Of a DNA stretch of 34,429 bases, positions 1 to 34,429 are shown in pieces. The stretch lies in IMG/VR virus record IMGVR_UViG_3300020613_000003. One strand, written 5' to 3'. This stretch comes from a virus. Positions within the stretch are counted from its first letter, which is position 1; every line of letters begins with the position of its first letter. The notes beneath the pieces were generated by a model. The model had not been told where the DNA came from and searched no databases. It saw only the letters and a program-made list of their open reading frames with translations. Both the position numbers and the translations under genes were made by a program.

Positions 1-55
1 TTCAAACACTGTTCATTGAAGGAAATATCACTCGCCTTGATGATGAAATTATGCG
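1..55. repeat. Terminal redundancy: nt 1-55 are identical to nt 34375-34429, so the contig closes on itself with a unit length of 34,374 bp.
   Basis: Direct comparison of the first and last 55 nt (ttcaaacactgttcattgaagg...gatgaaattatgcg) gives an exact match. The repeat lies inside terL, so it is an assembly overlap and not a physical genome end. Confidence 0.95.
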
Positions 56-296
56 TAAAGCCTTGATAAATGCGGTAATCAAAGAAGATAACATCGGTAT
101 TCAGGTCGATAAAATGAAATCCACTTACAAGATTGACGTTGTGGATGCTCTTATCGATGCTTTTTACGATGCCATGTACGCATTTGAAGACTATGCAATC
201 ACTAACAATCCAACATGGAAAGTCGAACATATGAGCCAAGAGGCAGTTTTAGCATGGCTAAAAAACCCAGAAAGTGGGCTATTAGAGGAGTATTAA
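1..296 (+). CDS. terL: Terminase large subunit, extreme C-terminus. It continues the frame that runs off the window end at 34429.
   Basis: The frame is open from nt 1 and in phase with the frame open from 33483 across the 55-nt overlap (34374 is divisible by 3). It ends at TAA 294-296. The track ORF 51..296 is only its Met-initiated tail. Confidence 0.9.
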   Translation, partial: QTLFIEGNITRLDDEIMRKALINAVIKEDNIGIQVDKMKSTYKIDVVDALIDAFYDAMYAFEDYAITNNPTWKVEHMSQEAVLAWLKNPESGLLEEY

Positions 297-5705: not shown

Positions 5706-6059
5706 ATGGAAATCAGAACTATTAAAATCCCTGAAATCAGCAAGAAAGCATTTGAAGTATTTACAAGCAACCGCAATGTATTGCGTATGCATGAGTATCA
5801 GTTAGCAGTACTTAAAATCAGTGACACAATTGAAGATGGCGACACACAAGAGCAGGCTCAAGGTAGTTACTCAATCCTTAAAGAAATGCTTGGCTTTATC
5901 CGTGCTGTTCTTAACTTGAATGATGAAGATTATGACAAGTTACTCGATTTGGAAAATAAACGTACACAAGAGATTGCTGAGAAATTAGTGGGCTATATGT
6001 ATGGTTTGACAGATGAGCAACTTGAAAATGCCTCTGGTGAAGTTGACCCAAAAGAATAA
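5706..6059 (+). CDS. Tail assembly chaperone (gpG analogue)
   Basis: 117 aa, acidic, directly upstream of the tape measure. It ends 4 nt after a canonical slippery heptamer. Confidence 0.85.
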   Translation: MEIRTIKIPEISKKAFEVFTSNRNVLRMHEYQLAVLKISDTIEDGDTQEQAQGSYSILKEMLGFIRAVLNLNDEDYDKLLDLENKRTQEIAEKLVGYMYGLTDEQLENASGEVDPKE

Positions 6060-32788: not shown

Positions 32789-33478
32789 ATGAAAACAAAT
32801 CTAACAAAAACTCATGATATAGATGCAGCATATAATGAATTTGATTTTTCAGATGTTGCTCGAAAATATCAAGATGATGGCACAAAATATTGCTTTGATG
32901 TTTTAGAAGGTCGAATAGTCGCTGGTTACATGATTAAATTGGCGTGTTTCCGTCATTTAAGAGACCTACAACGACAAGGTAACGACGACTTTCCATATAC
33001 CTATGAAACGACTGAAGCGGACAAACTATTGAGATTTGCTAAGATATGTCCAAACGTAGACACTGGTGAGCCTACACAGTTGATGGCTTGGCAAAAGTTC
33101 ATCCTATGTATGCTTTTTGGATGGAGAAATGCCAACGGTGGTAAACGCTTTAGTCGTGCTATTGTTTCTGTTGGTCGTGGTCAAGGTAAAACGTATCTGA
33201 TGGCTATTCTAACGGCTTATTCATATTTTATTGAAAGCCTCGGACTTTCCAATCAGGACTATTTGGTTACATCAATCAACTTCAAACAAACAAACAAGTT
33301 GCTTGGTTACATCAAATCCATGATGAAGCAGATAATTCAGAACGAACCTTTCAAAAGTTTGGCAGTCGAGACTGAGTTGGGCTTGCATAGTGATCAAGTC
33401 ATCATGAAAGCAAACAACAACGTTTTAAGAGCCATATCAGCAGAGAGTGGTCAATATGATAGTTTTCATTTTACTTGA
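32789..33478 (+). CDS. terL: Terminase large subunit, N-terminal segment (ATPase Walker A part), ending prematurely at TGA 33476-33478
   Basis: 229 aa with SD aaaggggg and Walker A GRGQGKT (33173-33193). The frame stops one residue before where Walker B should begin. Confidence 0.9.
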   Translation: MKTNLTKTHDIDAAYNEFDFSDVARKYQDDGTKYCFDVLEGRIVAGYMIKLACFRHLRDLQRQGNDDFPYTYETTEADKLLRFAKICPNVDTGEPTQLMAWQKFILCMLFGWRNANGGKRFSRAIVSVGRGQGKTYLMAILTAYSYFIESLGLSNQDYLVTSINFKQTNKLLGYIKSMMKQIIQNEPFKSLAVETELGLHSDQVIMKANNNVLRAISAESGQYDSFHFT

Positions 33479-33482
33479 ATGA

Positions 33483-34429
33483 ACAACCGCTATTTTCGAT
33501 GAAATCGGAGAAATTGAAACAAGGGATGCAGTTTCTAAGATTGTTTCTGGGCAAGTTAAAGTTCCAAACCGACAATTCATTCAAATTTCTACTGCTTATC
33601 CAAACCCATCAGTTCCTTTCAGGGAAGACCAAAAAATCATGCAACAAGCCATGGAAGATGACGACAATAGAGATGCTGATACATACCTTTGCTTAGTTTG
33701 GTCGCAAGACAACCTTGATGAAGTCTTTCAACCAGAAACATGGGTGAAAAGTAATCCGCTTTTAGATTTAGATCAAGAGCGTGACAACCTCATGAAAGGG
33801 TTGATGGATAAAAGGGATAGCGACCTTTTAAGTGGTAACCTCGCTGACTTTCAAGTCAAGAACATGAACTGCTGGCTATTAGCTGATAGCAATAGCTTTC
33901 TCGATTTAAAAGATATTGAGAATGCAGTCGTAGATGACTTTGACATCAAGGGTAAGCGAGTTTATGTAGGATTGGATGCATCAATGTTCAGCGATAATAC
34001 AGCCATTGGCTTCGTCTATCCATACGTTGGTGAAGATGGAAGTCAGAAATGGCACATAGAACAGCACAGTTTCATTCCTTGGCAACAAGCAGGCTCGCTT
34101 GAAGCTAAAATGGAAAAAGACGGTGTTAACTATCGAGACTTGGAAGCCAAGGGTTTTTGTACAATCACAAGTCATCCAAAAGGTCTTATCAACTCTGAAG
34201 AAGTGTACCGTTGGTTTTGTGAGTATGTCGAAGATAATCAACTTGACGTCGTTTTCTTCGGCTATGATGCACTGGGTGTTTCTAAACTAATCAAGGCGTT
34301 GGAAGCTAATACTAGTTTCCCTATGATGCCAATTAGACAGCGTACAAGCGAATTGAAAGACCCTACAAAATTCCTTCAAACACTGTTCATTGAAGGAAAT
34401 ATCACTCGCCTTGATGATGAAATTATGCG
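33483..34429 (+). CDS. terL: Terminase large subunit, downstream segment in a different frame (Walker B through the nuclease domain). It continues into 1..296.
   Basis: The frame opens at ACA 33483, after TGA 33480-33482, and reads TTAIFDEIGEIETRD.. (Walker B), then ..KRVYVGLDASMFSDNTAIGFV.. (RNase-H-like nuclease Asp). There is no start codon or SD. It is absent from the ORF track because it lacks a Met start and runs off the window. Confidence 0.9.
34375..34429. repeat. Second copy of the 55-nt terminal redundancy
   Basis: Identical to nt 1-55. Confidence 0.95.

Follow-up and report, generated by a model that had tools for sequence, protein, structure and literature searches.

How does a phage make its large terminase subunit from a gene that is cut in two by stop codons? 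The question is raised by the terL gene in a virus genome from IMG/VR (record IMGVR_UViG_3300020613_000003), a stretch of 34,429 nucleotides (nt) that was analyzed as a whole and is called the window here. The window belongs to a cos-type phage of Streptococcus thermophilus, genus Moineauvirus. Just upstream of the codons for the Walker B motif its terL carries a 10-nt insert, which is real, conserved, present in isolated phages and has the exact geometry of a translational bypass. The original prediction, made from the sequence of the window, had proposed that ribosomes hop over it. The comparative analysis gives the same answer. The interrupted terL is best explained as one gene with a conserved non-coding gap of 10 nt, and translational bypassing, by a +10 hop from ACU to ACA, is the best-supported and the probable way in which it is read.

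The interruption and its distribution

The upstream reading frame of terL (frame A) ends in GAT AGT TTT CAT TTT ACT and is closed by TGA. A single A, a second TGA and the codons ACA, ACC, GCT, ATT, TTC, GAT and GAA follow (Table 1). The list of open reading frames (ORFs) of the window gives frame A as an ORF of 229 amino acids (32789..33478). Frame B (+1), the only one that continues as TerL, is closed by the second TGA, opens at ACA 33483 and reads TTAIFDEIGE... to the end of the window and then over 56..296. The open parts of the two frames do not overlap, and no single +1 or -1 slip joins them. All of this had been claimed beforehand and was borne out by direct reading, translation and the ORF list, as was the presence of Walker B (AIFDE) and of the nuclease part (Pfam TerL_nuclease) in the downstream frame. 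The third frame (frame C) holds a 73-codon ORF, TTG 33475..33696, which is unrelated to TerL.

Bases 1-55 of the window are identical to 34375-34429, a k-mer-sized overlap left by circular assembly. The true genome length is therefore 34,374 nt, and terL spans the circular join. The C terminus had been thought to wrap to 1..296; the wrap stands, but coding resumes at 56 because bases 1-55 are the duplicate. The correct coding sequence (CDS) for the window is join(32789..33475, 33486..34429, 56..296), which encodes 623 amino acids.

Joining the halves at ACA gives ...DSFHFTTAIFDE... at the junction and a protein of the same length and local sequence as intact TerL. Joining at ACC (622 amino acids), which the original prediction had also allowed, is unsupported because the ACC codon varies synonymously (ACC/ACG/ACT), as a decoded codon does. 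The Pfam domain TerL_ATPase covers residues 101-267 of the joined protein, continuous across 229/230, and TerL_nuclease covers residues 292-583. The alignment with the TerL of HK97 (6Z6D) is free of gaps, with sfhfttaifdE placed against GLSPILAILDE, and the break therefore sits at the N-terminal edge of the Walker B strand. Together with the 623-residue intact relatives, this match shows that the normal spacing before Walker B is restored, as had been expected. The position of the insert is ambiguous by 2 nt (33473-82, 33474-83 or 33475-84) because AC...AC flanks it.

The same interruption is found in many relatives. The window is matched by 117 GenBank phage records at 80-91% identity, most of which have two annotated terL CDSs. 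Phages DT1, CHPC1034, P3684 and P5652 share the 690-nt first ORF and an identical junction, while Abc2, Sfi19, D5842 and the prophage Javan288 have a single terL of 1,872 nt encoding 623 amino acids. The intact genes read ...TTT CAT TTT|ACA ACG GCT... (TTT|ACA ACN), and alignment shows the interrupted genes to be the same with the addition of ACTTGAATGA, exactly 10 nt. The comparison with terL of related cos phages that had been suggested thus does show an insertion, and the class defined by this insert after ACT is called T10. A gapped pattern search of IMG/VR returned only two spacings, 6 nt at 77 intact loci and 16 nt at 18 interrupted ones. The 32-nt junction occurs in about 103 GenBank records, nearly always at 100% identity, and these come from several collections and sequencing technologies. 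The insert is also present in IMG/VR, ENA, Logan and JGI contigs. DT1 was reportedly sequenced by the Sanger method in 1999.

Because the window was itself assembled, as a circular contig whose ends overlap by 55 nt, two explanations had to be considered: the insert could be an error of assembly or sequencing, or terL could be a pseudogene, the genome being defective or satellite-dependent. The comparative data refute both, and the probability left to them is negligible. Identical inserts in the GenBank records and in many metagenome contigs make the lesion anything but private. Each interrupted gene carries this one lesion only, with no further lesions and no relaxation of selection on either side (see below). 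The insert is carried by phage isolates for which host strains are named, and there is a single terL locus and no second terL copy in the genome of the window. Isolates of these collections are plaque-forming and lytic, and their terL must therefore work. The caution, voiced with the original prediction, that the window might hold a dead variant or a defective genome can thus be dropped, as can that of a misassembled 10-nt insertion.

A second exact copy of ACTTGAATGA at 5914-5923 of the window was considered as a donor template and rejected. It was judged to be a chance match because its flanks share no similarity with those in terL.

The annotation of terL is inconsistent in about 100 GenBank/RefSeq records, including AF085222.2 / NC_002072.2 (DT1), where it appears as two genes. 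The halves are labelled either as 'terminase small subunit' and 'large subunit' or as two 'terminase large subunit' genes. The first half is called 'terminase small subunit' in the records of DT1 and of phage YMC-2011. The annotated second CDS starts past Walker B, at the equivalent of window position 33561 or 33651.

Table 1. Features of the interrupted terL gene, in window coordinates
Feature	Position	Strand	Remarks
terL ORF1, first 229 codons, covering the Walker A side of the ATPase domain	32789..33475	+	ATG start; last codon is the take-off codon
10-nt insert ACTTGAATGA relative to intact terL	33473..33482	+	Alignment with Abc2, Sfi19, D5842 and Javan288
Proposed take-off codon ACT (Thr229)	33473..33475	+	Would be in the P site as UGA arrives in the A site
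Frame A stop TGA	33476..33478	+	Proposed A-site codon at take-off
Frame B (+1) stop TGA	33480..33482	+	Closes the mini-ORF from ATG 33456; blocks the simple +1 route
Proposed non-decoded coding gap, UGAAUGA plus landing codon	33476..33485	+	10-nt insert; 623-residue product with intact-TerL spacing
Proposed landing codon ACA, the Thr codon of the uninterrupted gene	33483..33485	+	
terL ORF2, resuming at ACC (Thr230)	33486..34429	+	Walker B AIFDE at 33489-33503, then nuclease domain
terL C-terminal end past the circular join	56..296	+	
Hairpin, loop UACUU holding ACU	33465..33483	+	Arms 33465-71 and 33477-83; RNA fold

Selection on the gene and routes across the gap

The two kinds of allele were compared in a colinear set of unique terL sequences from Moineauvirus, 35 in all, of which 14 are interrupted and 21 are intact. 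In the interrupted alleles the ratio of nonsynonymous to synonymous substitution (dN/dS) is 0.026 in ORF1, 0.019 in the 56 codons that run from the junction to the first in-frame ATG and 0.029 in the remainder of the gene; the proportion of synonymous differences (pS) in these segments is 0.50, 0.48 and 0.60. The same three segments of the intact alleles have dN/dS values of 0.016-0.029, with 0.016 in the 56-codon segment, whereas wrong-frame controls give 4.5-5. These ratios indicate that frame B is translated from the junction onward and is held by purifying selection as in the intact genes. With dN/dS of 0.02-0.03 on both sides of the gap, a solitary lesion per gene and about 103 GenBank records of isolated phages that carry it, the gap-bearing gene is functional and not decaying.

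The anatomy of the insert is conserved as well. In diverged T10 lineages, the TerL proteins of which are 78-83% identical, the insert is altered at just two positions, and each time a TGA has become a TAA. The second stop is changed at loci L147/148 (ACT TGA ATA A|ACA), and the first at L149/150 (ACT TAA ATG A|ACA). The length of 10 nt, ACT, ACA and one stop in each of two frames are all kept. The take-off codon ACT is invariant in the 27 T10 loci examined (27/27). ACA is the landing codon in 13/14 unique interrupted alleles and is present in 13/21 intact ones; ACC takes its place in the isolated phage P7632 and at L030. Immediately upstream, TTT CAT TTT is found in all 14 interrupted alleles compared to 7/21 intact ones, which use either TTC or TTT and either CAC or CAT (Fisher 5.8e-5).

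Several conventional routes across the junction can be set aside. A +1 slip at TTT-C or ACT-T runs into TGA 33480. From U-UUU (33469-72), a -1 slip leads into frame C and needs a second shift between 33483 and 33489, where there is no slippery site; it would also add residues that are missing from intact TerL. Readthrough of TGA 33476 ends at another frame A stop at 33500. A separate start for the second half fares no better. Between TGA 33480 and Walker B, frame B contains no ATG, GTG or TTG. The nearby starts are misplaced: reading from ATG 33456 (frame B) ends at TGA 33480, and TTG 33475 and ATG 33479 belong to frames C and A, respectively. The coupled start before Walker B that a split gene would have is thus missing from the window. 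Past the junction, frame B has its first ATG only beyond Walker B, and the first ATG start chosen by gene callers maps to 33651. An internal promoter or restart was rejected likewise: promoter-like sites number 2 against 1.6 expected, which is not above chance, and no purine-rich Shine-Dalgarno sequence precedes ATT 33492. The genome of the window encodes no tRNA.

What is found instead are the elements expected of bypassing: two ORFs separated by a non-decoded gap that no shift at overlapping codons can join, ACT and ACA (ACC in P7632) on either side of the gap, and a slow A-site codon, TGA (TAA at L149), directly after ACT. The bracketing by synonymous Thr codons had been pointed out for the window and holds in its relatives. 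In the proposed mechanism, ribosomes would start at ATG 32789, read 229 codons and pause there, with UGA occupying the A site while peptidyl-tRNA(Thr) is paired with ACU in the P site. On some of these ribosomes the anticodon would leave ACU, the mRNA would slip by 10 nt and the tRNA would re-pair with ACA. Decoding would restart at ACC 33486 and give a single 623-residue TerL of about 71 kDa, with the junction HFT-TAIFDE of the uninterrupted relatives and a predicted junction-spanning tryptic peptide AISAESGQYDSFHFTTAIFDEIGEIETR. The other ribosomes would terminate and release a 229-residue fragment of about 26 kDa. The efficiency of the hop is probably modest, such that an ATG start combined with a leaky hop would supply roughly the TerL dose given by a GTG start in uninterrupted genes.

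This estimate is based on the start codon of terL, which covaries with the insert. The start is ATG in 14/14 interrupted alleles, while the intact ones have GTG in 15/21 and ATG in 6/21 cases (Fisher 1.8e-5). Of 370 variable sites none is more strongly associated with the insert than the start codon, which lies 684 nt upstream; position -4 comes second, and the sites between start codon and insert are unassociated with it. The insert state shows no phylogenetic clustering, requiring 11-13 changes on neighbour-joining trees compared to 11.2 for shuffled labels, and the interrupted DT1 and the intact Abc2 differ at only 1 of 600 flanking nt. Linkage is therefore excluded as the cause of the association, and co-selection is likely. 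On the simplest reading, ribosomes that start ORF1 make a dosage-relevant product through the gap, and the stronger start compensates for an inefficient hop.

The scatter of the insert state bears on a further possibility, namely that frequent precise loss of the 10 nt (by way of the AC..AC microhomology or the hairpin), or recombination, supplies TerL in trans from DNA. Labels distributed as if at random and the near-identity of DT1 and Abc2 are what such an exchange would leave behind, and 5/6 intact alleles with an ATG start also have TTTTCATTTT and so resemble fresh revertants that have recently and precisely lost the insert. Revertants should, however, outcompete their parent, whereas about 103 records of separate isolates have the insert as their consensus. 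Microhomology of 2 nt is expected to yield very low deletion rates. Neither the ATG/GTG covariation nor the conservation of the stops, of ACT and of the landing codon in the diverged variants is predicted by DNA-level rescue, which is accordingly considered improbable.

The insert and its flank can form an RNA hairpin with ACU in the loop. A 6-bp hairpin had been proposed; it exists and is slightly longer, with 7 pairs, one of them U-G. The 41-nt fold has an energy of -6.4 kcal/mol (z = -3.5), and 1 of 200 shuffled sequences was as stable. The variable upstream positions 33466 and 33469, both third-position T's, lie in its 5' arm. The hairpin is present in T10 and T10v2, is weakened in T10v1 and is absent from the other insert classes described below (D, T5 and R4), so a conserved hairpin as a family-wide feature was rejected. 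Because the variant at L147 breaks the only C-G pair and the other classes lack such a hairpin, its role can be seen in two ways: it may stimulate the hop, or it may be a mere trace of the origin or spread of the insert. A hairpin could also let the polymerase skip the 10 nt, and an unknown editing or splicing event would have the same effect of removing them from the mRNA. Such RNA-level removal seems very improbable. There is no homopolymeric slippery run at the site, no known bacterial mechanism excises 10 nt precisely, the inserts of 4-9 nt in other classes lack a comparable hairpin, and neither matched take-off and landing codons nor conserved stops would be required.

Other small inserts at the same site

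Searches with the 229-residue ORF1 returned many truncated N-terminal fragments of 54-94% identity. Further insert classes emerged from the DNA of these fragments and from scanning IMG/VR, GTDB genomes and metagenomes with anchored patterns. All of them lie within the same 10 codons of terL, in the roughly 30 bp that immediately precede the Walker B codons. In metagenome contigs and IMG/VR, class D4 has the form GAY-TGAC-TCA (+4) and class D5 the form GAC-TAGGC-AGT (+5). Class D8, GAC-TAACTGAT-TCG (+8), is represented by one metagenome contig. Class D9 (+9, in frame) comprises GAY followed by TAGCTAGGC, TAGCAAGGC, TAACTGGAC, TAACTAGAC or TAAGTAGAC and then TCA, and occurs in prophages of Levilactobacillus, Limosilactobacillus and Lactiplantibacillus. 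Class R4, CGA-T-CGT, adds 4 nt without a stop and was found in metagenome contigs. Class T5, ACT-TG-ACC-AAT (+5), is that of the S. salivarius phage YMC-2011.

These inserts share a common plan. In every class but R4 a stop (TAG, TAA or TGA) directly follows the take-off codon. Whatever the frame change, the triplet before the codon at which reading resumes (GAC, GAT, ACC, CGT or GGC) is cognate or near-cognate to the take-off codon. The take-off/landing pairs are GAY/GAC, GAC/GAT, ACT/ACC and CGA/CGT, and the near-cognate GGC occurs in D5 and in the commonest form of D9. Skipping the mini-insert alone gives one uninterrupted ORF of 622-634 amino acids for each gene. Such a pattern of triplets is what re-pairing of the peptidyl-tRNA would be predicted to leave, and neither readthrough nor decay would be expected to produce it. 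Class D9, as in GAC TAA CTG GAC TCA, would be a candidate natural in-frame stop-hop.

The D-class site is five codons upstream of the T10 site, after the Asp codon of Q-Y-D, in phages and prophages of lactobacilli and their relatives (loci L097-L102, L106-L108, L111-L123, L125, L132, L133, L136, L151, L165, L173, L181 and L183). The T5 insert is found at L096 1579-1604 (YMC-2011, a prophage, CP002889.1) and at L103-L105. There the sequence TTT ACT TGA CC AAT GCG ATT ATG GAT GAG is broken at the same Thr codon as in the window, and a +5 hop from ACU to ACC would restore HFT-NAIMDE. At the R4 loci L109 and L110, metagenome contigs that carry P0031, the sequence is TTC CGA T CGT ACT GCC; a +4 hop from CGA to CGT would cross it, although the overlapping frames also allow a formal +1 shift.

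Two of the classes contain restart codons that overlap the stop: ATG from TATGAY in D4 and, in the downstream frame of T5, TTG in ACTTGACC. Because the restart is in frame, a split and translationally coupled TerL is possible in D4 and T5. Among the start codons of ORF1, ATG is used by the T10 variants, D5 and D9 and GTG by T5; one D4 locus has TTG and the other ATG. The GTG and TTG starts thus fall in the two classes with a possible coupled restart.

Many genomes of the insert-bearing family contain an ORF of 300-378 amino acids between terS and terL. It matches the PHROG families 'HNH endonuclease' and 'homing endonuclease' with E-values down to 1e-92 and, in tblastn searches, genes for 'group I intron-associated VSR homing endonuclease' in Staphylococcus and Bacillus phages. 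The protein is a free-standing endonuclease of the VSR/PD-(D/E)xK type with treble-clef zinc fingers. The gene is located at L100 1369-2466, L103 1328-2464 and L111 1627-2526 and, in Moineauvirus, at L051, L071, L161, L038 and L013. Its GenBank carriers are P7631, P7632, SW5, SW2, P7601, CHPC1005, CHPC873, D1024, P3681, 140, VA460 and Javan288.

Of the insert-bearing loci, 15/38 have the endonuclease gene, compared to 5/49 of the intact ones; these loci are not independent of each other. All ten S. thermophilus cos phages in GenBank that combine it with an interrupted terL carry T10 (10/10). The only two endonuclease-positive genomes with an intact terL, VA460 and Javan288, have the triple synonymous change TTC CAC TTT ACC (-7, -4 and +2). 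The insert state is unlinked from the flanking phylogeny, and where matched interrupted and intact alleles differ, the changes are concentrated at -22 to +5, the pattern expected of a short co-conversion tract. One may speculate on these grounds that the mini-inserts of 4, 5, 8, 9 and 10 nt are immunity scars, which break the site of a VSR-type endonuclease and persist solely because ribosomes can cross them. An arms race in the manner of T4 mobA and gene 60 would then have arisen a second time, independently. The idea is tentative and rather doubtful. A strict linkage of insert and endonuclease was rejected, the association being an enrichment and no rule, and the window has no endonuclease gene between terS and terL, merely a 41-nt spacer; both facts weaken it.

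Relation to known recoding systems

The closest precedent is the large terminase gene of the Streptomyces phage phiHau3, in which two 10-nt inserts have been proposed to be bypassed (Smith et al. 2013; RNA Biol 2023, PMC10732093). For one site, mass spectrometry in E. coli supported bypass of a version in which a UAA stop replaced the rare UUA, and an added +1-frame UGA in the gap raised bypassing 2.25-fold in reporters (PMC10732093). The same study found interrupted terminase genes in 3 of 100 surveyed, phiHau3 and two prophages (PMC10732093). Read from the sequence (L195, NC_018836.1, around 385-410 and 690-715), the phiHau3 sites are GGC-TTACTCC-GGT and TCT-TTAACGG-TCC. As in ACT-TGAATGA-ACA of the window, a codon is followed by 7 nt that begin with a slow A-site codon and then by a synonymous codon, giving +10 in a terminase gene; the +1-frame stop that stimulated the phiHau3 reporter is conserved in T10. 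Furthermore, the second site (g7/g8) lies one residue from that of the window relative to Walker B, S|TFVVLNE compared to T|TAIFDE, provided that VVLNE is, as we infer, the Walker B motif of phiHau3. The shared position could be due to convergence or to a common reason for the choice of this spot.

The two systems differ in their trigger. In phiHau3 it is the rare, developmentally regulated, bldA-dependent UUA, for which sensing of the host cell cycle has been proposed, whereas the A-site codon here is a stop (UGA/TAA) in a phage of a low-GC host. The inserts have no detectable sequence relationship to T10, and the scale is different, with about 100 isolates and further classes in the present case.

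The precedent helps in weighing the most serious competitor of the bypass, a TerL made of two chains. According to this explanation the 229-residue chain is released at UGA. After termination the ribosome would keep its deacylated tRNA(Thr), slide along to ACA and take up elongation again with no initiator tRNA, and the C-terminal chain that results, beginning with TAIFDE, would assemble non-covalently with the ORF1 product. It uses the same matched-codon anatomy and accounts equally well for the start-codon covariation. The restarts that overlap the stop in D4 and T5 suggest that a split TerL may be tolerated in the family, and the phiHau3 paper cites work according to which termination need not lead to ribosome recycling. 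However, the ATPase core is interrupted right at the N-terminal end of its Walker B strand, where a productive split is unlikely. Classes T10, D5 and D9 lack any start codon in the right frame, and a gap-spanning junction peptide was found for the phiHau3 site of the same geometry. The two-chain arrangement is therefore regarded as unlikely, though less so than rescue at the DNA or RNA level.

Translational bypassing, as the original prediction had it, is supported by the conserved length, ACT, landing codon and stops, by selection on frame B, by the closed restarts, by the phiHau3 geometry and by the start-codon covariation. Several points weigh against it. Full-text literature searches produced no report of the full-length product or of a junction peptide, and neither a nascent-peptide stimulator nor one resembling a Shine-Dalgarno sequence was identified at the terL junction. 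Unprogrammed stop-hops have been described as low-level events. ACU and ACA share their first two bases only. The hairpin is unconserved at L147/148 and without equivalent in the other insert classes. The covariation of the start codon fits termination and re-pairing just as well, and split-gene expression is possible in those parts of the family, D4 and T5, where an in-frame restart overlaps the stop.

The original prediction had likened the site to T4 gene 60. The underlying logic does apply: the stop comes right after the take-off codon, which is held in a hairpin, the landing codon is matched and one protein is, or in the present case would be, made from two ORFs. In both cases a His stands at -2 from the take-off residue (His44 before Gly46 in T4, His227 before Thr229 in the window), and cryo-electron microscopy has suggested that T4 His44 hinders RF1. 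The HF motif (window 33467-33475, His227-Phe228-Thr229) is conserved in TerL, and the likeness of the His to that of T4 may be a coincidence. The T4 insert belongs to a homing-endonuclease (mobA) cassette, and many insert-bearing genomes have a VSR-type homing endonuclease gene just upstream of terL; the window, unlike T4, has none between terS and terL. Membership in the T4 cassette family does not hold, however, because T4 has a 50-nt gap and dedicated signals. Its gap is flanked by identical GGA codons in a topoisomerase gene, whereas here 10 nt are flanked by synonymous ACT and ACA in terL, and nothing comparable to the nascent-peptide signal, the 5' stem-loop or the Shine-Dalgarno-like element of T4 was identified. 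A presumed likeness of the T4 gene 60 nascent-peptide signal to NNNVLRAISAES was left out of account.

Stop-hops, in which the peptidyl-tRNA re-pairs at a nearby cognate codon while a stop is in the A site, are described for E. coli reporters in a 2016 recoding review by Atkins, according to which no natural in-frame stop-hop is known (PMC5009743). The E. coli events are synthetic or adventitious and low-level, whereas the hop in the window would be out of frame (+10) and in an essential gene. The programmed +1 frameshift of prfB resembles the present case in that an A-site UGA triggers recoding and a shorter termination product competes. It requires an overlapping open +1 frame, which TGA 33480-82 closes here past the frame A stop, and a Shine-Dalgarno sequence at a set spacing, which is absent from the window. 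The byps of Magnusiomyces capitatus mitochondria are also short non-coding inserts in essential genes that are tolerated by bypassing and exist in many copies and variants. Byps are mobile, GC-rich elements of about 27-55 nt that are handled by mitochondrial translation and occur at many sites, compared to the one hot spot in terL.

Full-text literature searches found no description of an interrupted terL in S. thermophilus phages; the original 1999 paper on DT1 is outside their coverage, and an early remark there is possible. The passages targeted in the Atkins 2016 review, the GeneTack paper and a 2017 survey of S. thermophilus phages do not mention it. The locus would add to translational bypassing a natural and widespread example that has gone unrecognised. 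Natural bypassing that is put to use is known from very few systems: T4 gene 60 and its relatives, Magnusiomyces mitochondria and the phiHau3 candidate.

If confirmed, the hop would be a short one, triggered by a stop and located in an essential gene, and its site is shared by about 100 dairy phages of industrial importance. The natural variants of +4, +5, +8, +9 and +10 form a ready mutational series for the rules of take-off, landing and distance. S. thermophilus phages can be engineered by CRISPR (clustered regularly interspaced short palindromic repeats), which makes the question directly testable. The immunity-scar idea, if true, would give the first natural in-frame stop-hops (GAC TAA CTG GAC TCA), and the possible link to a homing endonuclease would tie recoding to conflict between phages. 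For the phages themselves, the covariation of ATG and GTG with the insert suggests that the dose of TerL is tightly tuned.

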